Below are positions 3,309 through 41,280 of a stretch of DNA of 64,000 nucleotides, in pieces. The notes below the pieces were generated by a model. That model saw only the letters and a program-made list of their open reading frames with translations, was not told the origin of the DNA and did not search any database. The first letter of the stretch is position 1, and every line of letters begins with the position of its first letter. A program made the position numbers and the translations under genes. The DNA is from Bacillota bacterium (GTDB lineage: Bacteria > Bacillota > Bacilli > Bacillales > Bacillaceae_B): contig JBNJJI010000006.1 of NCBI GenBank assembly GCA_051750065.1, positions 137,146-201,145 of the forward strand, given 5' to 3'.

Positions 3309-3635
3309 ATGACTATTGATTCTGGAATAACCGATACCCCCAAAGATAAAATTTTTGAAAAGTATGAGGCTAAATTCAAAGCTATCGGAGATAAAAAAAG
3401 GCTTCACATAATGAATATCCTTACCCAAAAAGGTGAAATGTGTGTTTGCGACCTGGCACCACTGATGGAAATGACTCAATCCAAACTGTCTTATCATTTA
3501 AAGATCCTTCTTGATGCTAAGGTAATTACCAAAGAAACAAGAGGAACATGGAGTTATTACAGATTAAATTCTGAAGAACTTAACCATTTGTTGTCTGAAG
3601 AACTTTGCTGTCTTTTTCGAAAAAAAAGCTGTTAA
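3309..3635 (+). CDS. ArsR/SmtB-family metalloregulator
   Basis: 108-aa winged HTH with the C-V-C-D metal/metalloid sensing motif (EMCVCDLAPLM). GAGGTGA RBS. Confidence 0.9.
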   Translation: MTIDSGITDTPKDKIFEKYEAKFKAIGDKKRLHIMNILTQKGEMCVCDLAPLMEMTQSKLSYHLKILLDAKVITKETRGTWSYYRLNSEELNHLLSEELCCLFRKKSC

Positions 3636-3668
3636 TTCTATATTAGCAGCTCTCTTTCACTACATTAA

Positions 3669-3706
3669 ATCAAATTTTTTTGATTTATAAATCAAGATAT
3701 ATTGAT
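3669..3706. promoter_or_regulatory. Two tandem ATCAA-N6-TTGAT operators (copies 3 and 4) upstream of the permease gene
   Basis: atcaaatttttttgat (3669-3684) and atcaagatatattgat (3691-3706), centres 22 bp apart. Confidence 0.55.
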
Positions 3707-3728
3707 ATATCATCAGGAGGTATTTACT

Positions 3729-4595
3729 ATGTTTACGGAAACATTGAAAAGTTTTTTATACATTGCATTAGAATTAACGCTGCTTTTTATTTTTATTTCG
3801 TTCTTCATCAGTTTGTTTCAAGGGGTGATTCCTTATGAAAAAATCGAAAAACACTTTTCAGGAAAAAACAAAGTTATTGCTGCCCTGGCTGCTGTTCTTT
3901 TCGCATTCATTACCCCGTTTTGTTCATGTTCAACGATACCCCTTGTCGTAAATATGCTGAAGAAAAAAATGCCGTTTGGGATCGTTATGATCTTTCTATT
4001 CTCTTCACCTGTCTTAGATCCAACCATTTTAACCATCATGGCCGTCCTTTTGGGGTGGAAAGTAACCATCCTCTATATCCTCATAACTTCTCTGCTTTCA
4101 ATTATCATTGGATTACTGCTTGAAAAATTGGGATTTGAAAAGTCAGTTAAAAACGTTGTCATGACAGGTTATACTTCAGCACAAAAAAAGTTCAATGTCA
4201 GACTGGCGATTGCTGAAACATGGAGTTTAATGAGAAGTGTTCTTCCCTACTTGATTGTCGGAGCTGCTATTGGTGCCGTCATACATGGCTTGGTTCCTAC
4301 GGAATTGATTTCTAATTTGTTTGGCAGCGAGAAATGGTGGTTGATTCCACTAGCTGCTATTGTAGGAATTCCTTTGTACATCCGCTTATCGAGTATGATT
4401 CCTATATCACAGATACTCATTATGAAAGGAATGGCACTTGGTCCAGTGATGGCAATGATGATCAGTTCTGCTGGTGCAAGCTTGCCGGAAATCATTCTGC
4501 TCAGATCTATTTTCAAGAAAGAATTAGTAATAACATTTGTGCTGTCCGTTGTTGCCATGTCGACTATTTCAGGCTTCATCTTCTACTTGGTGTAG
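3729..4595 (+). CDS. UPF0718/YraQ-type permease with T-P-F-C-S-C motif (ArsP-like organoarsenical/metalloid efflux permease)
   Basis: Polytopic membrane ORF with conserved cysteine pair ITPFCSCSTIP. Start moved to ATG 3729 behind AGGAGG. Follows the arsR-like gene. Confidence 0.82.
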   Translation: MFTETLKSFLYIALELTLLFIFISFFISLFQGVIPYEKIEKHFSGKNKVIAALAAVLFAFITPFCSCSTIPLVVNMLKKKMPFGIVMIFLFSSPVLDPTILTIMAVLLGWKVTILYILITSLLSIIIGLLLEKLGFEKSVKNVVMTGYTSAQKKFNVRLAIAETWSLMRSVLPYLIVGAAIGAVIHGLVPTELISNLFGSEKWWLIPLAAIVGIPLYIRLSSMIPISQILIMKGMALGPVMAMMISSAGASLPEIILLRSIFKKELVITFVLSVVAMSTISGFIFYLV

Positions 4596-5745: not shown

Positions 5746-6555
5746 ATGGAAACGAAACAAGAATTACTTTCAGCTCTTGAAGAAACAAATCATTGGATTG
5801 AAGATCAAAAAAAAGCCTGGTTTTGGGAAAAGTGGACAAGACTCCCTTTTAAGGTACTGGATAAGATCACACCAGAATTCATTCATAAAAAAATCGGGAC
5901 TTTATTGGATGAAATGGGAAGCTATATACAAAATGGAGGAAAATATTTAACTTCAGAAAAATCGATGTTTAAATATATTGAAAAAAATACAGCAAGAAAC
6001 ATTACAAGCTTGGAAGAAATAGCCGCGCTCGAGCTTAAGGAAATGGACAGACTCAGCAGGAACCTTGCCGGATCAAGAAGAAAGGCAGCTGCCGTACAAG
6101 GAGCAACTACAGGAATTGGAGGGCTTTTCACTCTTTCCATAGATATACCTGCCTTACTTGGCATATCACTGAAAACGCTTCAAGAGATTGCCATAATTCA
6201 TGGATATGATCCTAATGATGAAAAAGAGAGAATCTTCATCATTAAATGCCTTCAGTTCGCTTCTGCTGATGTCGTTGGAAAAAAAGCGATTCTCGATAAT
6301 CTGGCTGCCTATTATGACGGAGAAGTGTCAACCAATGAAGTCATGGCTCAAATTCAAGGCTGGCGTGAAGTGGTTTATACTTACCGAGATCAATTTGGCT
6401 GGAAAAAACTTTTTCAAATGGTGCCTGTAGCCGGTATGATTTTTGGTGCATTTACGAACAGAGCGATGATAAGTGATATAGCAGAGGCAGGTTCAGTCCT
6501 TTATCGTAAAAGAAGGATTAAAGACAGGCTTTACTCATTAGAAGAGACAGTATAA
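5746..6555 (+). CDS. EcsC-family protein
   Basis: Sequence pattern recalled for the EcsC family (GGLFTLSIDIPALLGISLKTLQEIAIIHGYDP). Start at ATG 5746 behind GAAAGGAG. Confidence 0.7.
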   Translation: METKQELLSALEETNHWIEDQKKAWFWEKWTRLPFKVLDKITPEFIHKKIGTLLDEMGSYIQNGGKYLTSEKSMFKYIEKNTARNITSLEEIAALELKEMDRLSRNLAGSRRKAAAVQGATTGIGGLFTLSIDIPALLGISLKTLQEIAIIHGYDPNDEKERIFIIKCLQFASADVVGKKAILDNLAAYYDGEVSTNEVMAQIQGWREVVYTYRDQFGWKKLFQMVPVAGMIFGAFTNRAMISDIAEAGSVLYRKRRIKDRLYSLEETV

Positions 6556-8116: not shown

Positions 8117-8300
8117 CGCTCTTTTCGTAAACTTTATTGTTATTTCGATAGAACTTTTAAAAAGGCTGTTTTCGCAAAGATTGGGGCTGTTGAATAGTAG
8201 GATTTCCGCTCCAGGCGCACGACTCCGCTCCAATCCCCCCTACGTAAGAGGGAAGAAGGGAAAATAGCATTTAAAAGCAACAATCTTTTAGAAAACAGCC
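8117..8300. mobile_element. MITE (GCTSTTTTCG-TIR family), composite copy with an extra internal TIR and a collapsed GC core
   Basis: Ends are cgctcttttcgtaaac... and ...cttttagaaaacagcc, with an internal ggctgttttcgcaaagattg at 8164. Flanked by TAAAAAAA at 8109-8116 and 8301-8308. Confidence 0.7.
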
Positions 8301-10606: not shown

Positions 10607-11683
10607 ATGAAAACAATGGACTTTGAAATTAAATACCTGTCCTTTTACGTTGTAGAAGTAGAAGGAAAAGGAGAAAGTGCCGATAAAAGATTCAAGCATT
10701 TTCAAACTCTTGATGAACAAGGTTATGAAAATAACCCTCTTAAAGAATTCTTAGATGGGGAATTGACTAAAATCGCAAAGCGAAAAGTGGACCGGCACAG
10801 TAAATCTGAAGGAGCACCGACTAAAATCGGTCGATTCATTGTGGAGCCCGGACATGAATTGGATTCTAATCCGAACTATAATTTGTTTGACCGTGCCAGA
10901 AATCCTGAATCGATTGACGCTTTTAAAGAAGCTTCCCTGCAGTTCGTCAATGCCTATGTAGATGCAAGTGCAGTCAGAGGCGGTGTTTTCATTGTAGCGC
11001 TGGCAAAGTTGAGGAAGTACTTCGATGATCCTTTTCTCTTTCTTATGAAATGTGACTTTGAACCAAAAGTCGCAAGAATCACTGATGAATCTACCTTGAT
11101 TCATAATGTTGAAATGGCGATTACTACTAAAAATATGAAATCCATTCAATATCCTTTCATGCCTGAAGAAGGAATGATGGACGAAGCAGAACTGAAAATC
11201 CACCAAGCTTCCCACGCCAGGTACTTTGAGGATTTTCTTAAATTCGTCGAATATGAGAAATCGATGCCGGAAATCGTTAGGACGCAGGTAATGGGAATGG
11301 TTCAGGAATACATCGAAGAATCATATGAGCCTGAAAGTGAAGAAAGAGTGGAATTTGAATCGGCTGTGGAGGCCTGGTCAGTCAGCCCAAAACGCGATCT
11401 GCAAGAGAGATTCACTACTGAACAAGTTGTAGAAGCCACTTCACAGATCATTGAGCAGTCACCAGAAGTTGAATTAAAGATGAAACTGGATCATATCGAT
11501 GTGAAAGCCATGCTCTCTGATTTCGGTGATACAATTCATATGGCTAAAGTCAATGGCAGATACATGCTGTTAATAGAAGGAGATTCCGTTCAATTTGAAA
11601 AAGGAACATCTCCAATAGAATTCTTAAAGCCTGATGATCTGCAAGATGTGATTGAACGAATACAAAAAAGAGGGCAGCAATGA
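10607..11683 (+). CDS. Acidic 358-aa protein of unknown function (possibly nucleoid-associated-protein/NdpA-like N-terminal fold)
   Basis: Long clean ORF with strong coding character. The RGGVFIVALAK...FLFLMKCDF segment recalls NA37/YejK-type proteins. Start may be ATG 10616. Confidence 0.7.
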   Translation: MKTMDFEIKYLSFYVVEVEGKGESADKRFKHFQTLDEQGYENNPLKEFLDGELTKIAKRKVDRHSKSEGAPTKIGRFIVEPGHELDSNPNYNLFDRARNPESIDAFKEASLQFVNAYVDASAVRGGVFIVALAKLRKYFDDPFLFLMKCDFEPKVARITDESTLIHNVEMAITTKNMKSIQYPFMPEEGMMDEAELKIHQASHARYFEDFLKFVEYEKSMPEIVRTQVMGMVQEYIEESYEPESEERVEFESAVEAWSVSPKRDLQERFTTEQVVEATSQIIEQSPEVELKMKLDHIDVKAMLSDFGDTIHMAKVNGRYMLLIEGDSVQFEKGTSPIEFLKPDDLQDVIERIQKRGQQ

Positions 11684-11696
11684 AATAACTCTTTTA

Positions 11697-11734
11697 AAGG
11701 TCAGCCGAGAGTAAACGGCTGACCTTCTTTCATT
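11697..11734 (+). terminator. Intrinsic terminator
   Basis: 11-bp stem aaggtcagccg/cggctgacctt followed by a T-rich tract. Confidence 0.7.
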
Positions 11735-11887
11735 TTGTAACACCTATTGTAAACATCGAGGCTCAATAAATGGTCAGCATCAAACCTATTTAAAATAACT
11801 CATAATAATTTCTTCTTAAATTCTGTTATTCATTTTAATAAAGCATATAATGAAACTTAGAATCTAAGTAATTTTGGGGTGTATTTT

Positions 11888-12715
11888 ATGTTAACAAATA
11901 CTCAGCTTTTCGAAATAGAAGAATTGCAATTGTTATGCGAAAAACAAGATGATTTTAAATTAAAACTGAATGGTGACATGCTCCGCTCACGTAGCAGCGG
12001 CCAGGATGACTATTTTCATTATGAAGATGGAAAATTAACAGGATTTCTAGGTCTTTATGGTTTTGGAACAAGCTATGAACTTTGCGGCATGGTCCACCCG
12101 AATTATCGCAGAAGAGGTATTTTTCAAAGTCTCTTCCAACAGGCAATCACTTCCCTGAAGGAACGTGGAATCAGTAAACTTCTTTTGAATGCCCCAGGCT
12201 CATCTCAATCAGGAAAGTTATTTATAGCTGACCTTCTCGCACATTATTCTTTTTCAGAGTATCAGATGAAATGGAAGCAGAAGGAAATCAAAGATGACAA
12301 TTCAAGCATTGAACTGGTTCCTGTTACCGATGATGACCTTGTCCAGATTGTAGACCTCGATTATTTATGCTTTAGTGTAGAACGAGAGGATTCATTGGAA
12401 TTTATGAAAATGGTAGACAAGGACGATAGCAACTTCAGTTTCATGATTCAATGTAAAGGTGATAAAGTGGGGAAGATCCATATCAAGCGTGAGAATGACC
12501 GAAGCTATATATTTGGGTTTGCTGTCCACCCCTCTCATCAAGGAAAAGGCATCGGAAGGTCTGTTCTTGAAAAAACAGTGAAAATAGAATGTGAGAATGA
12601 AAAAAGCATTTTCTTAGAGGTCTCTGCGAAAAATGCAAACGCATTAAGATTATATGAAGAAACAGGTTTTGTCTCTTATCAGGTTCAGGACTACTACAAA
12701 TTTGAAGGCTTTTGA
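11888..12715 (+). CDS. Two-domain GNAT N-acetyltransferase
   Basis: C-terminal acetyl-CoA motif HQGKGIGRSVL and an N-terminal degenerate GNAT half. Start at ATG 11888. Confidence 0.8.
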   Translation: MLTNTQLFEIEELQLLCEKQDDFKLKLNGDMLRSRSSGQDDYFHYEDGKLTGFLGLYGFGTSYELCGMVHPNYRRRGIFQSLFQQAITSLKERGISKLLLNAPGSSQSGKLFIADLLAHYSFSEYQMKWKQKEIKDDNSSIELVPVTDDDLVQIVDLDYLCFSVEREDSLEFMKMVDKDDSNFSFMIQCKGDKVGKIHIKRENDRSYIFGFAVHPSHQGKGIGRSVLEKTVKIECENEKSIFLEVSAKNANALRLYEETGFVSYQVQDYYKFEGF

Positions 12716-12801: not shown

Positions 12802-13296
12802 TTATTTCTTTTCTTTATAAAATACATGATACGATTTGATCTCATCTTCTATTTCCAATACACCGAATGAATAGTATGGCTGTTTTCGCTTATCAGTCGC
12901 AGAGCCGGGGTTAAACAAGAGTGTGCCTTGGGTAAATCTCAGATAAGGGATATGAGAGTGTCCGAATATAATAATATCCGGTTTTTCCTCAAATTCATCC
13001 AGTGCTCTCTTCTCGGTTGTCTTGCCTTTACCATCACCGTGCACGACTCCAACCGTAAATGCGCCCGCTTTCAGAATCTGTTTCCGAGGAAATCGGCTTT
13101 TGATGTCTTGATGATCTGTATTGCCAAACACCCCTTCAACCCTTCCATACTCTTTCAGTTTCTCATACACATCGAGACTATTCCAATCTCCACCATGGAT
13201 GATCAGGTCTGCTTGTTTCAATTCATTAATGAGAGGAAGAGGAAGATCCTCCCCCTTCTTCGGCATATGCGTGTCACTGACGACGACTATTTTCAA
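12802..13296 (-). CDS. YfcE/MJ0936-family metallophosphoesterase
   Basis: Motifs VVSDTH, HGGD, GNTD and GHSH in canonical order. 164 aa. Confidence 0.88.
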   Translation of the reverse strand: MKIVVVSDTHMPKKGEDLPLPLINELKQADLIIHGGDWNSLDVYEKLKEYGRVEGVFGNTDHQDIKSRFPRKQILKAGAFTVGVVHGDGKGKTTEKRALDEFEEKPDIIIFGHSHIPYLRFTQGTLLFNPGSATDKRKQPYYSFGVLEIEDEIKSYHVFYKEKK

Positions 13297-14976: not shown

Positions 14977-15288
14977 AAAAAACAAAAACCCCCTCGTCCA
15001 TAGATGTAAAGACATCTAAGGACGAGGGGGATAGCTCGCGGTACCACCTTAGTTCACTGAGGGCTCGCGCCATCAGCCTCATGAAGTACGGAATGCAGAA
15101 GAAACACATTCTTATACTGTGGCAATGATAACGGCTGCCAACTCCCGTTCCACCCTACACCTCATGGTTCGAATGAAAAGCTCAGAGATCATCTTCAATC
15201 AACTTTCCCCTTGCTTCTTTTCAGCTTCCGAAGCTCTCTGTAAAGGATAATCCTTGATTTACTCTTCTCTTCAACGCAAATAAGTATT
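14977..15288 (-). promoter_or_regulatory. T-box riboswitch leader, Met (AUG) specifier
   Basis: Minus strand carries Stem I gcgttgaagagaagagta and cagagagcttcggaagctgaaaag. Specifier is gaagAUGa (15190-15192). T-box aactaaggtggtaccgcg is at 15037-15054. Terminator is ccccctcgtcc/ggacgaggggg plus a U-run. Confidence 0.9.
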
Positions 15289-15580: not shown

Positions 15581-15699
15581 TAATTTCCGTTCCAGGTGCA
15601 CGACTCCGCGGGGCGGGCGCCCGGCCTCCTCAGCTTCGCCTGCCGGGTCTCACCTGTCCCGCTAGTCCCGCAGGAGATCGTGCACCTTCCACTCCAATC
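15581..15699. repeat. GC-rich hairpin core module of the MITE family (full-length copy, no clear TIRs)
   Basis: taatttccgttccaggtgcacgactccgcgggg...cccgcaggagatcgtgcaccttccactccaatc. The long arms GGTGCACGACTCCGCGGG and CCCGCAGGAGATCGTGCACC are inverted. Confidence 0.75.
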
Positions 15700-18625: not shown

Positions 18626-19378
18626 TTATTTTATTGTCTGTTTCAACGATCTATTACCGATGCTAAAAGGAACTGCTCTCTTATAGAAAAGGTAGCTGAT
18701 GAAGAAGATTGCTAAAGCTGCAATTTCTAAGTTAATATAATAAGGCTCTTTTCGTAAACTTTGTTGCTATTTGATACTTATTCCGAAAAAAACTACCATA
18801 ATTCACCGGAATAACCTGGTAATCATGAAAAGAAAAGAGCTACTTTCCCCGATTAGAGAGAAATTCCCTAGTATCCGGGGAAAAATCCGGCTTTTGGGAT
18901 TTTTCCGAAAGCAACAATATATGCGAAAACAGCTTATAATAATGAATTCCACTGCCAAACAGCGATAGAGCAGTATTTCCTTCTGGTGGTCCAATGAGGA
19001 GAAAATAATTGCTTCCGAGGATTTTGTTGAGCAAATAAATTGAAGTATCTTGATGCACAGCATAATCATTCCCCGCCAAATAGAGTGAAATGGTAAAGTA
19101 TACTCTTTTGTTTTGAGAAGATAGACAGCCATTAATGGAATAGACATATGGTGCAGAAAGAATGTTAAAGATCGATAATGAGGAAAATCGTATAGTAAAT
19201 CCGGGGTAACCATAACTAAAATTGGTGGAATAACTCGTATATAGTAATAGAATGCAGTCTCATTTCGCTTCCAATAGAAAAATATGCAATAAAAAGTACT
19301 GAATGAGCACAGTTGCAGAGGAAGAAAGAATCGAGCATCCCAAACACCATAAAAAACGACCGCCCAAACTTGGTGCTA
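18626..19378 (-). pseudogene. YwaF/TIGR02206-type integral membrane protein gene, inactivated
   Basis: Minus-strand pieces: ...VWDARFFLPLQLCSFSTFY...VTPDLLYDFPHYR..., then NKILGSNYFLLIGPPEG...GSGIHYY in another frame, then INLEIAALAIFFISYLFYK...*. Lesions are an in-frame TAG at 19376-19378, a frameshift near 19050-19090 and a MITE at 18744-18934. Confidence 0.8.
18744..18934. mobile_element. 191-bp MITE (long type) inserted in the YwaF-like gene
   Basis: Ends are ggctcttttcgtaaac... and ...gcgaaaacagct. Perfect 8-bp target duplication TATAATAA at 18736-18743 and 18935-18942. Confidence 0.9.
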
Positions 19379-19767
19379 AATCTCGGAACTAATCAAAATG
19401 ATAAGAAGCAAAGTCCCTATTGCTTTAGAGATCTTTGCTTTTTTTTTTAAGTGTTATGATAAGCAAGAGTATAAAAAACACAAAGAGAACCAACAAGTGT
19501 GTGAAAGAAAACATTTCGAAATCAGTCATTTCACCTGGTGCAAACAAAATTTCTCCACCCTTTCTTTCTTTATGTATATTCTACCTTTGTTACAAACAAT
19601 CGCACTTATTATTCTTCTATCTTAATAAATAATTTATAGGCACTTAACAATTTACCATAAATTCAGAAAACATAAATTATTCAATTTGAATGGATAAACA
19701 TTTTCCAATTACCTAAATTGTGGTAAAATTCTAAATTAGAGAAAGAGAAAAAAACTTGGGGGTAAAT

Positions 19768-21312
19768 ATGAAAGAAAAATTAAAAGCATTTGGAGTGCCG
19801 GTAGCGGCAATATTAATCTTGGTAGGAATTCTATTTTTTCAACAGCTACTAACGTTGACTGAATTGCCAAATGAAAACTGGAGCCGTTCCATGCCTTTTG
19901 ATATGGAAATGGAAGAAAAACCTCTTGTCTTTCAAAACGGAAATGAAGTCTTCTTTACTGAGGGCGACAAAGTTCATCATGTCACTGTAGAAGAAGGACT
20001 GAATGTAAAAAATGAAGGTCATATATCTTTCACGGTACCAAGGGGATATTCCTATTGGACAGACGGTGAAGAGTTTGTGACTTTCAGCCAAGGTACCTTG
20101 AAATTGGATGGAGAAAATGAACAGATTCTAGCCCAAGATGTGACAGGCGTTGCAACTCAGGAAGATATGATTGTTTTCTGGCAAGATGGAGATGTATTCG
20201 AATTGAACCCTGAAACATGGGAACCAAAAAGCCTCCACAGCTTTTCAAATGAAGTAGAGAATGTTTTCTTTGGCACCGATGGCAGTTATGTGATTGCTCA
20301 GCAGACAGATGATGTTAATGCAGATCTTTTCTACATATCTGCTGAAGGCATAGTCACTGAAAATCCTTTCATGAAGGTTGCCAACAACAAGAATGACAAA
20401 CTCGGTAATTTAGCTTATACAGTCCAAAACGGTGATATTACTCTTCTCTACAATACTCAAATGCGCTCGCAAGGGGTACTTTCCTACAATATGTTTACCA
20501 TTAATACTTCAGTAAACGATTTAGGAAGCACTTTACTAAAGCCTGAAAAAGTAACTATCATAAATGAAGAGAACGGAGCGAAACTTGAAACTCCGCGATA
20601 TGTTCAGTTCATGAAATCAGAGGAAACTCCAACACTGCTTTTCACTGCAGAAGCTCAAGGAGTAGGTGCAGGGAATACTGTTTCTCTGTATACTGGCAAC
20701 TATGATGATTCAGCTGCCATTTATGCTTCATCTTTCACGACAACAGATGGGATTTCTAACTTTCCAGTAGTGATTGATGAATCCATTGTTTGGCTTGATT
20801 ATAAAGGAGGAGATTATAGTCTTCACGGAGCTTCACAGTCTCCTGAGGTAATAGCGGCTAGTACAGAGCTATCTTCCCGCTCCTGGAAGGAAGCAGGCAT
20901 CAATACAGTTCTGATGCTGGCAAGCAGCATGGTGACTTTCCTCGTTTCTTTCTATTGGGTATTGCCTTCACTGCTTCTCTTGATTGTTATGTACATGGCT
21001 AAGCCTAATATTTTTGAAAAAGAAGAAATTAACTGGGTAGAATATGTTTCGATTGCTATATTCTCGGTGATGCCTTTCACATTCATAGATAAAGCAATGA
21101 ATGGTTACTTCTATGAAATAGCTCCTTCGTATTTAACATTTACAGGCAGCGGCTGGATCCTGCTGCTTATAATTACGGCATTGTCGGCAGTTGTTTGGAA
21201 GTTAGGCCGCGATCCCGAGTGGGGAACATTTGGAGGAGCCTTCTACTTCTTCGGAATTTATATTATGCTTTATGTAACAAGTATCGGAACGTATGTGTTT
21301 AACTTATTTTAA
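19768..21312 (+). CDS. Membrane protein: N-terminal anchor, about 350-aa extracytoplasmic domain, C-terminal multi-TM domain; unknown function
   Basis: Long clean ORF. Start at ATG 19768 behind GGGGGT. Hydrophobic segments at the N-terminus and over the last about 150 aa. Confidence 0.8.
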   Translation: MKEKLKAFGVPVAAILILVGILFFQQLLTLTELPNENWSRSMPFDMEMEEKPLVFQNGNEVFFTEGDKVHHVTVEEGLNVKNEGHISFTVPRGYSYWTDGEEFVTFSQGTLKLDGENEQILAQDVTGVATQEDMIVFWQDGDVFELNPETWEPKSLHSFSNEVENVFFGTDGSYVIAQQTDDVNADLFYISAEGIVTENPFMKVANNKNDKLGNLAYTVQNGDITLLYNTQMRSQGVLSYNMFTINTSVNDLGSTLLKPEKVTIINEENGAKLETPRYVQFMKSEETPTLLFTAEAQGVGAGNTVSLYTGNYDDSAAIYASSFTTTDGISNFPVVIDESIVWLDYKGGDYSLHGASQSPEVIAASTELSSRSWKEAGINTVLMLASSMVTFLVSFYWVLPSLLLLIVMYMAKPNIFEKEEINWVEYVSIAIFSVMPFTFIDKAMNGYFYEIAPSYLTFTGSGWILLLIITALSAVVWKLGRDPEWGTFGGAFYFFGIYIMLYVTSIGTYVFNLF

Positions 21313-21321
21313 GAACTTTTA

Positions 21322-21360
21322 AAAAGCAGCCTCAGACTCTGTTCGAGGCTGCCTTTTATT
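21322..21360 (+). terminator. Intrinsic terminator
   Basis: Stem gcagcctc/gaggctgc followed by ttttatttt. Confidence 0.7.
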
Positions 21361-21441
21361 TTACTTTATTTATAATCTGCTGATTTTCCTCTAAGGTCAT
21401 CCACCCTTAATGAAGGTGTATACTAGTATAGAGAACAAGAA

Positions 21442-29417: not shown

Positions 29418-29560
29418 GGCTGTTTCTATATAAATTGCTGCTTTCGGCAAAATCCCAGTACGGTTTTTCTCCTAAATGAAATAGAAAATGGATTAGAGGG
29501 ATTGAAGTAATTATTACCACGCTGATAAAACTTTTCCACTAAAAAGGAGAAAAGCAGGTC
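29418..29560. mobile_element. MITE-family copy (long type, diverged right half)
   Basis: ggctgtttctatataaattgctgctttcggcaaaatccc... aligns with the left halves of the 18744-18934 (reverse complement) and 36936-37104 copies. Confidence 0.5.
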
Positions 29561-33233: not shown

Positions 33234-33466
33234 AAATAAAAAACCCTGAGTGGTTGGAGCACTCAGGGAGATAGTCATTACTAAATAAGCGTATAAAAAT
33301 TTCTTTTTTTACGCGCTTTTTCCTTCTCCCATCCAGACTTTAACTGTCGGCCTTGGAGTTTCACCAAATCCACCGCCATTTGTTAAAATGACGGGTCACG
33401 GACTAAGAACAATTCATGTTCATCACCGCCGGTAGGGAATTTCACCCTGCCCCGAAGGAAATACTA
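33234..33466 (-). promoter_or_regulatory. FMN riboswitch (RFN element) with terminator
   Basis: Minus strand reads ttcggggcagggtgaaattccctaccggcggt...ccgacagttaaagtctggatgggagaagga. The terminator ccctgagtg/cactcaggg plus U-run lies at 33234-33268. Confidence 0.92.
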
Positions 33467-36739: not shown

Positions 36740-36854
36740 TTCCTTCTCCCCCTATAAACAAAAGACCGATTCTCTAACAGAACCGGCCTTGGTTTCTTTA
36801 CTATATTCTACATAAGTTTAATTTTTCCTAGGAGAATTCTCTTTTTTTGAAAAG

Positions 36855-36927
36855 TTGTTTTCGCATAGGTTGTTTCGATCAAAAAATGGAGTGCCGCTCC
36901 AGCCCTGCAACTCCTTAGGGGCTGTGT
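36855..36927. mobile_element. Truncated short-type MITE
   Basis: agttgttttcgcataggttg...ggagtgccgctccagccctgcaactcc. Its right part is interrupted at 36928 by the insertion site of the next element. Confidence 0.55.
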
Positions 36928-36935
36928 TTAACTAA

Positions 36936-37104
36936 TGCTGTTTTCGCATATATTGTTGCTTCCGGATATCCCCGGATACTAAGGGTTATCTCTCAAATCT
37001 GGGAGAGCCTCTCTTTTCTTTTCATGTTTACCAGGTTATTCCCGAAATTTTGTTTGTTCTTTCTGGAATTGGCGTCAAATAGCAGCATTGTTTACGAAAA
37101 GTGC
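36936..37104. mobile_element. 169-bp MITE (long type)
   Basis: Ends are tgctgttttcgcatat... and ...gtttacgaaaagtgc. Perfect 8-bp duplication TTAACTAA at 36928-36935 and 37105-37112. Confidence 0.88.
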
Positions 37105-37161
37105 TTAACTAAAAAGAGAAGCGCCTTATCACATACTTAATAGAGTATCTAGCTGCAAAAA

Positions 37162-37500
37162 AATAAGGGGAGATTTTCCCGTTAATTGCAAATTCAAGCT
37201 CATTTCGGGAATGAATAGCGGGAGTTTTTACCCTTATATAAAGAAAAGGTATCTATTATATAGTGTTTTGAGTCAAATAAGGGGAATTTCTCCCTCTATT
37301 CAAGTCTGTTTCAGTGCTATTTAGTAAATAAGGGGATTTTTTCCCTCTATTTAATTGCGAAAGTAATGAACCTGCTGATAAATGTCACCGCTCACTGTTC
37401 AAGGCACTTGATTCAGATCTTTGAATTGTTTAGTTGAGAAAATACCTTAGCAAATCCCACATGCAAGAATTCTCAAAAAAAAGGGGGATTTCCTTTGATT
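37162..37500. repeat. Array of five AATAAGGGGA-N4-6-(T)CCC direct repeats
   Basis: Copies start at 37162, 37214 (degenerate), 37276, 37327 and about 37478. The first four are 51-62 bp apart. Confidence 0.65.
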
Positions 37501-37557
37501 CTCTTGAGAAATTTTGATGACTGGCGAGACCATGGTTACGTACCAACTGGAACTTAA

Positions 37558-37667
37558 CCCCGCAGGCACAGCCAAGGAGGCCAATCCAGCTCCAGCATCC
37601 CGTGGAGTCGTGCGCCTGAAGTGGAAATCCTTTTCTTTTCAACAGCCACAACCTTACGAAAAGACCC
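37558..37667. mobile_element. Truncated short-type MITE (reverse orientation) overlapping the 3' end of the ABC permease gene
   Basis: Reverse complement reads gggtcttttcgtaaggttgtggctgttgaaaagaaaaggatttccacttcaggcgcacgactcc...ctgcgggg. The TIR covers the last codons and stop of the 37654-38427 CDS. Confidence 0.65.
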
Positions 37668-39666: not shown

Positions 39667-39842
39667 AGCTATTCTCGTATAGAATGTAGCTTTCGGAAAA
39701 ATCCCAAGAGCCAGTTGTCTCCAGTATACTTAGGCTTTTCTCTATAAAGGGGATTACAGCTCTTTTTTCCTGATAGACACCACTTTAAATGGAGTATTTT
39801 GAAAGCCCGCTTTGAATAACATCAAAGTTTACGAAAAAAGCC
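39667..39842. mobile_element. 176-bp MITE (long type, diverged)
   Basis: Ends are agctattctcgtatag... and ...gtttacgaaaaaagcc. Flanked by TTATAGAA (39659-39666) and TAATAGAA (39843-39850), a 7/8 match. Confidence 0.75.
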
Positions 39843-40497: not shown

Positions 40498-41280
40498 ATG
40501 ATGTCAAAATTTGAAGCCTTGATATTGGGGATGATTCAAGGGCTTACTGAGTTTTTGCCCATCTCCAGTACAGGCCATCTTTATTTAGGGCGCAAAGTTT
40601 TCGGTCTTGAAGAAGCGGGTCTTTTTCTTGATACAATGCTTCATCTCGGTACTCTCCTCGCAGTACTTGTTGTCTACCAGAAGGAACTGCTTCATATGAT
40701 CCGCCACCCTTTCAGCAAGCTGAGCTTCATTCTAGTCATCGGAACGATACCTGCTGTTATCATTGGATTTTCATTTGAAGATTATTTCGACAGAATCTCG
40801 ACAACAGGAAGTACAATTGGGTGGGAATTTCTTATCACCGGGCTAATCATGTATATTGCAGATGGAGTCAAAGATGGTTACAAAAAGCTTGAGGATCTTA
40901 CTTATACGGATGCTTTTGTCATTGGCAGTTTCCAAGCTGCCGCCATTTTTCCAGCTCTTTCAAGATCAGGCTTGACGATAGCAGCTGGGTTATTCCGCAA
41001 ACTTGACCGCCAGACTGCTGCCTACTTTTCCTTCCTCCTTTCTACCCCTGCGATTTTAGGCGGATTGGTGATCAAAGGAAAAGATCTTTTCTCAGGTCAT
41101 GTAGAAGCTGTATCTCTCCCCGCTTTGATGGTTGGAACAGCTGCTTCCGCTGTTTTCGGCTATATTGCGATAGTAGCTATGATTAACTTTTTGAAAAACC
41201 GTTCACTGAAAATTTTCTCCTATTATGTATGGGGGCTCGGACTACTTATTTTAGTCCTCCAATGGGCAAAGGTTTTTTAA
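40498..41280 (+). CDS. uppP: Undecaprenyl-diphosphate phosphatase
   Basis: BacA/UppP signature GLTEFLPISSTGH. 260 aa, polytopic. Confidence 0.93.
   Translation: MMSKFEALILGMIQGLTEFLPISSTGHLYLGRKVFGLEEAGLFLDTMLHLGTLLAVLVVYQKELLHMIRHPFSKLSFILVIGTIPAVIIGFSFEDYFDRISTTGSTIGWEFLITGLIMYIADGVKDGYKKLEDLTYTDAFVIGSFQAAAIFPALSRSGLTIAAGLFRKLDRQTAAYFSFLLSTPAILGGLVIKGKDLFSGHVEAVSLPALMVGTAASAVFGYIAIVAMINFLKNRSLKIFSYYVWGLGLLILVLQWAKVF

Follow-up and report, generated by a model that had tools for sequence, protein, structure and literature searches.

A 191-bp MITE of a dispersed Bacillaceae family interrupts a decaying TIGR02206/YwaF-type gene

Our analysis identifies a 191-bp MITE (copy A) that lies within a gene of the TIGR02206/YwaF type in the window, a 64,000-nucleotide stretch of DNA from a Rossellomorea-like Bacillus relative (Bacillota). 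The exact boundaries of the insertion, the duplication of its target, its membership of a repeat family and independent insertions of that family in a sister lineage are all directly observed. Copy A combines the hallmarks of a MITE: it is short (<~600 bp), has no transposase coding capacity, carries terminal inverted repeats (TIRs), is flanked by a target-site duplication (TSD) of fixed length and belongs to a family with dispersed copies and empty sites, all in agreement with the original prediction that a MITE had been caught inside this gene. Very likely, this non-autonomous element was inserted by a trans-acting, probably ISL3-type, DDE transposase into a gene that is dispensable. A bacterial MITE trapped in a gene in this way is nothing out of the ordinary and exemplifies a well-known process. 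The element and its flanks comprise the following features:

18744-18934, plus strand: MITE copy A, 191 bp, non-coding, with no open reading frame of ≥25 aa contained wholly within it
18736-18743: left copy of the TSD, TATAATAA, which fits the family target consensus TTWNNWAA (90% A+T)
18935-18942: right copy of the TSD, TATAATAA, a perfect 8/8 match to the left copy
18744-18771, plus strand: left TIR, GGCTCTTTTCGTAAACTTTGTTGCTATT, near-invariant in 22 aligned copies and 112 sampled ends
18907-18934, minus strand: right TIR, reading inward as AGCTGTTTTCGCATATATTGTTGCTTTC
18832-18840, plus strand: central block GAAAAGAGC, the reverse complement of the left terminus, conserved in 22/22 aligned copies
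18879-18906, plus strand: right-subterminal hairpin GGAAAAATCC-N8-GGATTTTTCC, conserved in sequence, with no compensatory changes

Copy A begins with GGCTCTTTTCGTAAAC and ends with GCGAAAACAGCT. Re-reading of the coordinates reproduced exactly the element ends and the 8-bp duplication length initially reported, including the perfect direct repeat of TATAATAA on either side of 18744-18934. The TIR of copy A itself is imperfect, spanning 24 nt with 79% complementarity, and the end conserved throughout the family is ~28 nt long (22 aligned copies).

The most direct evidence for an insertion comes from a nucleotide-by-nucleotide alignment of the window with five orthologous syntenic loci from four related taxa. 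All of them (5/5) show a single clean gap of 199 bp, the combined length of the element and a single 8-mer, which is situated between FGSGIxYY and INLEIAAL in a near-invariant motif that is gapless in all homologues. Each orthologous locus contains one copy of the homologous 8-mer at the gap, the coding strand reading TTATTATA in the window, ATATTATA in the metagenome locus and TTATTACA in Bacillus sp. P14.5. In Rossellomorea aquimaris, moreover, the BLAST segments on the two flanks of the element share 6 bp, in keeping with duplication of the target. The orthologues thus lack the 191 bp and retain a single 8-mer site, the configuration anticipated in the original prediction for an uninterrupted locus.

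The interrupted gene was recognized correctly as to type and locus, but it extends beyond position 19378, where it had been thought to end, to a TTG start codon at 19547-19545; its TAA stop codon lies at 18628-18626 (minus strand). After in-silico repair of all lesions, its translation scores 107.5 bits against the NCBIfam profile TIGR02206 ("TMEM164-related integral membrane acyltransferase"; cutoff 75), covering profile positions 2-220 of 222, and shows 64-67% identity to the intact proteins of R. aquimaris and relatives. Homologues carry PF14808, and the closest intact proteins are encoded in R. aquimaris, a JGI metagenome, Bacillus sp. P14.5 and Bacillus sp. Marseille-Q1617, at loci whose gene order (Ku, PAP2, a 515-aa protein, TMEM164, GNAT, an acetyltransferase and MetRS) is the same as in the window. 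The gene and its additional lesions are located as follows:

18626-19547, minus strand: TIGR02206 (YwaF / TMEM164-like integral membrane acyltransferase family) pseudogene, interrupted by copy A
19439-19448, minus strand: lesion 1, a +1 frameshift in an A10 run, with one extra base in the alignment; A9 restores ...KKKAKISKAIGTLLL...
19376-19378, minus strand: lesion 2, an in-frame TAG that replaces a Ser/Thr codon of the conserved stretch E-I-S-Y-Q-I-W
between 19043 and 19042, minus strand: lesion 3, a 1-bp deletion, GATACTT-CAATTT as opposed to GATTCTTCCGATAT in orthologues

With the element in place, the minus-strand reading frame enters copy A and stops after 34 foreign residues, such that the last 37 residues of the host protein are exchanged for 34 element-encoded ones. 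In-silico deletion of 18744-18942 restores the frame as initially described, reading ...LFGSGIHYYINLEIAALAIFFISYLFYKRAVPFSIGNRSLKQTIK up to the stop codon on the minus strand, with the junction ...LFGSGIHYY-INLEIAALAIFFISYLFYKRAVPFSIGNRSLKQTIK and the stop. Together with the MITE, the two frameshifts and the TAG bring the number of inactivating lesions to four, so that the open reading frame is not intact, and the alignment with the orthologues reveals in-frame +3 and -6 indels in addition. The notion of a decaying gene is therefore borne out, with one lesion (the A10 run) more than had been noted; the TAG was found exactly where it had been reported, and the frameshift previously placed near 19050-19090 does exist, although its true position is between 19043 and 19042. 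The change in the A10 run could be due to slippage in vivo or to a homopolymer sequencing error, whereas the lesions outside this run cannot be explained by sequencing error. The orthologue of Bacillus sp. P14.5 (L117:2732-3465) has a 1-bp deletion of its own and is called as two overlapping open reading frames of 103 and 154 aa, indicating that the TIGR02206 gene is decaying independently in a second lineage. Given the three other inactivating lesions in the window and this independent frameshift in a relative, the gene appears to be dispensable in the clade, and we infer that its loss was neutral.

Copy A is one of several members of its family in the window. The 16-nt end occurs eight times at ≤3 mismatches, compared to an expectation of 0.6, and four copies (A, B, C and the composite D) are bounded, with solo ends in addition. 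Only copy A lies in a gene. The other bounded copies and the clearest solo end are:

36936-37104, minus strand: copy B, 169 bp, intergenic, with the perfect TSD TTAGTTAA at 36928-36935 and 37105-37112
39667-39842, minus strand: copy C, 176 bp, intergenic, with the TSD TTCTATTA / TTCTATAA (7/8)
8117-8300, plus strand: composite copy D, in which a left end of the family (8117-~8155) is joined to an element of a second family (8164-8300)
29419-29472, minus strand: solo right-end fragment of the family (nhmmer E = 6.5e-5)

The outer flanks of copy D read TAAAAAAA on one side and TAAAAAAA on the other. Further solo or fragmentary ends at 36853-36885, 41149-41167, 12879-12893 and 6450-6465 are weak matches that may have arisen by chance. 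Copy D terminates ~20 bp from the 3' end of the gene for the small RNA BsrF (Rfam RF01411, 8320-8431, minus strand, 98 bits), and its insertion may affect the BsrF terminator or its flanking context.

The second MITE-like family, which has related ends (GGCTGTTTTCGCAAAGATTGtGGCT...), is represented at 8164-8300, 34521-~34717, 37480-37667 (minus strand) and 52290-~52350, and its interior contains a G+C-rich palindromic module, GATTTCCGCTCCAGGCGCRCGACTCCGCGGGGCGGGCG...CCCGCAGGAG...CCTTCCGCTCCA. The module is also enclosed by GGCTCTTTTCGTAAAC ends in other genomes (L103, L059, L061 and L073), where the elements concerned measure 279-633 bp and have perfect 8-bp TSDs. The module also occurs alone, without MITE ends, at 15583-15699, just upstream of the MetRS T-box leader, where it aligns in two pieces, at 87-93% identity, with a copy at a different locus of R. 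aquimaris (L001:18560-18676); in this form, it may constitute an independent repeat class. The T-box leader upstream of MetRS (15015-15283, minus strand) and an FMN riboswitch upstream of a run of riboflavin-operon-like genes (33317-33463, minus strand) are ordinary housekeeping elements.

Beyond the window, a degenerate pattern of the left end retrieved at least 110 stretches from a collection of species-representative genomes. Among the matches listed, most are from Rossellomorea vietnamensis, B. salacetis, Bacillus sp. P14.5 and Nanhaiella, with further ones from Cytobacillus, Mesobacillus, Neobacillus and Alkalihalobacterium. A partner end together with flanking 8-mers matching at ≥6/8 positions was found for 71 of 112 sampled left ends, the duplications being perfect in 42 of these paired copies and matching at 7/8 positions in another 23. 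When control 8-mers displaced by 10 bp were compared for the same 71 copies, only 0-3 positions matched in 65 of them and ≥7 never did. The duplicated sites are 90% A+T, with the consensus TTWNNWAA. Family members range from 91 to 633 bp in size, with modes near 162 and 191 bp, and none of them is protein-coding. The idea that the long members (279-633 bp) are internally deleted insertion sequences was discarded, as they consist of G+C-rich non-coding modules without transposase remnants; neither ISL3 nor IS6 protein remnants were detected in family members of up to 633 bp.

Two syntenic intergenic sites provide insight into the timing of transposition, as they are empty in the window and occupied by copies with perfect TSDs (TTGTTGAA and TTTAGAAA) in R. 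aquimaris. The copy flanked by TTGTTGAA (L001, reverse complement ~12553-12708) corresponds to the empty site 21312-21370 of the window, and the copy flanked by TTTAGAAA (L001, reverse complement ~3475-3990), which is nested in the right terminal repeat of a second-family element, to the empty site 11670-11801. These R. aquimaris-specific insertions imply that insertions have built up independently since the two lineages split. The proposal that the family is, or recently was, mobile is thus upheld insofar as it has moved since the divergence from the R. aquimaris lineage; the data do not establish that this movement was recent, as identities among copies A, B and C of the window reach only 73-75%. 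Copy A shares 88-90% identity with copies at unrelated sites of R. vietnamensis. Its identity to the consensus of the ~190-bp subfamily is 85%, among the higher values observed (median 79%), compared with 69% for copy B and 62% for copy C. The perfect TSD of copy A is compatible with a fairly young insertion, although its 16 bases have little dating power.

Conservation within the element is concentrated in a few segments. Across 22 aligned copies, the ends, the central block and the subterminal hairpin are conserved, with the rest of the interior being variable; other subfamilies have GAAAAGATGCC at the position of the central block. The block GAAAAGAGC is probably an internal protein-binding site, and it may represent a third binding site for the transposase. 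We also considered that it could serve as an alternative end that gives rise to half-elements, and rejected this idea because members of 91-172 bp have both normal ends and differ in their interiors.

The identity of the transposase was approached by comparison with the ends of annotated elements. The first 8 nt of the MITE left end (GGCTCTTT) match the right ends of IS1251, ISEfa11 and an ISL3 element of E. lactis at 8/8 positions, and the MITE right end, (A/G)GCTGTTT, matches ISL3 ends at 6-7/8 positions. IS1251 (1499 bp) has the ends GGCTCTATAC... / GGCTCTTTGTC... and the TSD AAAATTAT, ISEfa11 (1514 bp) the ends GGCTCTATAA... / GGCTCTTTGTC... and the TSD TTTATTTT, and the E. lactis element the ends GGCTCTATAA... 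/ GGCTCTTTGTC.... A Parageobacillus ISL3 element has the ends GGTTCATCACC... / GGGTCTTCACC... and the TSD CAAAGAAA, and the only Bacillaceae ISL3 ends compared (from Parageobacillus and Geobacillus) start with GGTTCATCACC / GGGTCTTCACC, unlike those of the MITE. The TSDs of IS1251, ISEfa11 and the Parageobacillus element are 8 bp long, as in the MITE family, and A+T-rich. An inverted repeat starting with GGCTCTTCGCGG... and an 8-bp direct repeat have also been described for ISArsp7 (PMC6305408). The E. lactis element, which is located on a plasmid (L126, 478-1891), is flanked by AACAATTT and AATTGTTA, which are reverse complements except for one end base rather than a direct repeat and suggest a rearrangement between two copies instead of a simple insertion.

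Searches for the parent element itself returned no candidate. No autonomous element with MITE-type ends (GGCTCTTTTCGTAAA) was detected in the window, ~1 Mb around family copies, plasmids or viral contigs. Paired fuzzy ends located 0.9-3.5 kb apart around an open reading frame proved to be separate MITEs bracketing ordinary genes, and a generic scan for open reading frames flanked by inverted repeats yielded no parent insertion sequence. Five ISL3 transposases and one IS6 transposase had no tblastn match in the ~1 Mb of loci and the window, and Pfam analysis of ten long open reading frames of the window revealed no transposase. Plasmid searches with the element and the consensus end retrieved only more short copies, one of them beside an unrelated IS4 element, the scan of viral contigs gave only chance 16-mer matches, and no Bacillaceae element whose ends match emerged when ISL3 transposases of Parageobacillus and Planococcus served as tblastn queries. 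One ISL3 protein sequence served solely as a search probe and was verified through its own Pfam domains and the annotation of its matches.

Two other readings of copy A have little to commend them. It is conceivable that the 191 bp are ancestral gene sequence that was lost in the orthologues, or an assembly artefact, with the flanking 8-mers being coincidental in A+T-rich DNA; indeed, TATAATAA-type 8-mers occur seven times on the plus strand and three times on the minus strand of the window, which has a G+C content of 39.6%. This scenario would, however, require the same precise deletion in five loci from four taxa, of a segment that breaks a near-invariant motif, brings in a stop codon and bears terminal inverted repeats. 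Moreover, the segment is 88-90% identical to unrelated loci in other species, whereas its flanks are ~71-76% identical to the orthologues, and dozens of family members have 8-bp duplications of their own. The empty-site alignment, the copies at unrelated sites and the TSDs of the family effectively refute this possibility, to which we attach next to no weight. It is also very improbable, if slightly less so, that the element is more than a selfish MITE, having been selected as a small RNA, regulatory element, terminator or other functional module whose presence adaptively silences or rewires the gene. Copy A does fold better than shuffled sequences (z = -2.8 as DNA and -4.3 as RNA), its central block and subterminal hairpin are conserved, and the majority of family copies are intergenic. 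Against this, none of 29 predicted base pairs shows a compensatory change in the 22 copies, and there is no Rfam match for the element at gathering thresholds, leading us to reject a conserved RNA structure. Promoter-like sites are no commoner than in shuffles, and terminator-like sites are absent from the interior of the element. Lacking covariation, an Rfam match and promoter or terminator enrichment, the conserved segments are best read as sequences bound by proteins during transposition rather than as a selected RNA, and an adaptive explanation is unnecessary, since the host gene has three other independent lesions.

A more serious competitor, albeit still an unlikely one, accepts the MITE insertion and attributes it to an IS6/IS26-family transposase or another family with 8-bp duplications (for example, IS1595 or IS256). 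IS6 elements generate 8-bp duplications as well and have GG-initiated ends (GG(T/C)(T/A)CTGTTGCAAA), so that the duplication length of the MITE fits. Over 20 nt, ISL3 and IS6 ends both match the MITE end at 10-12/20 positions: the ISS1N ends (GGTTCTGTTGCRAAGTTT) reach 11-12/20, equal to any ISL3 end, and the best extended similarity to a specific ISL3 element is 11/20, no better than for IS6 ends. In addition, no ISL3 partner was found in the window or in ~1 Mb around family copies. The outermost 8 nt nevertheless favor ISL3, with 8/8 matches as opposed to 6/8 for the IS6-like ISS1N, and ISL3-derived MITEs with GGCTCTTCG ends and 8-nt repeats have been documented in Microcystis (PMC11448079). 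An IS6 transposase is likewise missing from the ~1 Mb around family copies. Furthermore, IS6 elements move via cointegrates and do not usually give rise to simple insertions of short non-autonomous derivatives, which counts against this family. Taken together, the 8-bp duplication, the A+T-rich targets, the terminal octamer GGCTCTTT and the precedent of ISL3-derived MITEs make ISL3 the best-supported parent, and these sequence features lead us to regard it as the probable, though by no means certain, transposase family.

Assuming that copy A was mobilized by such an enzyme, a DDE transposase acting in trans would recognize its ~28-nt terminal repeats and make cuts staggered by 8 bp in an A+T-rich sequence (coding strand: TTATTATA) within the part of the TIGR02206/YwaF-type membrane protein gene that encodes a conserved C-terminal motif, whereupon gap repair would yield the TATAATAA duplication. 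We infer that the underlying chemistry is of the cut-and-paste type.

It is tempting to speculate that GGCTCTTTTCGTAAAC ends define a large, apparently undescribed MITE superfamily of the Bacillaceae, in which one pair of ends encloses many unrelated interiors, including the G+C-rich palindromic module that is also found alone, and whose mover is not a conventional multicopy ISL3 element (none in the ~2 Mb sampled) but a single-copy, domesticated or distant enzyme. While we consider this extended scenario doubtful, the ends of such a superfamily would, if it exists, act as a general vehicle for the spread of structured DNA modules.

No description of the terminal sequence or of Rossellomorea MITEs was found in the searchable literature. 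The present case fixes the ends to the base pair, along with the 8-bp duplication and the TTWNNWAA preference, for an abundant MITE family of Rossellomorea and neighboring Bacillaceae genera. This knowledge makes it practical to mask and annotate the family in Bacillaceae genomes, where it can explain spurious "hypothetical protein" calls and split genes, and its insertion polymorphisms are usable as strain markers. As to the host gene, its independent decay in two lineages marks YwaF/TIGR02206 as dispensable in this clade.

Among known systems, the family resembles the ISL3-derived MITE of Microcystis aeruginosa (PMC11448079), which is likewise short and non-coding, has TIRs starting with GGCTCTT, generates an 8-bp duplication and is present in many dispersed copies that interrupt genes. 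The two differ in their hosts, Bacillota as opposed to Cyanobacteria, and their ends diverge past the first 7-8 nt; in addition, a full-length ISL3 partner with matching ends has been identified for the Microcystis element, whereas none was found for the Bacillaceae family in the sequence searched. Copy A also resembles IS1251, ISEfa11 and the E. lactis ISL3 element in its termini (GGCTCTTT.../GGCTCTAT...), which consist of a terminal heptamer followed by a conserved inner box, and it shares with IS1251 and ISEfa11 the A+T-rich duplications of 8 bp (AAAATTAT and TTTATTTT). However, these three elements are 1.4-1.5 kb long and encode a transposase with zinc-ribbon, HTH and DDE_Tnp_ISL3 domains, whereas copy A comprises 191 bp without an open reading frame, and its inner box, TTGTTGCT, is unrelated to that of the Firmicutes ISL3 elements. 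Finally, although they have no sequence similarity to copy A and differ from it in their ends and in the length of their duplications (TTTAT for bcr1, TA for Correia and 9 bp for MITEAba12), the bcr1 elements of the Bacillus cereus group, the Correia and RUP elements and MITEAba12 share its anatomy and consequences, combining terminal inverted repeats and target-site duplications with high copy numbers and the disruption of genes.
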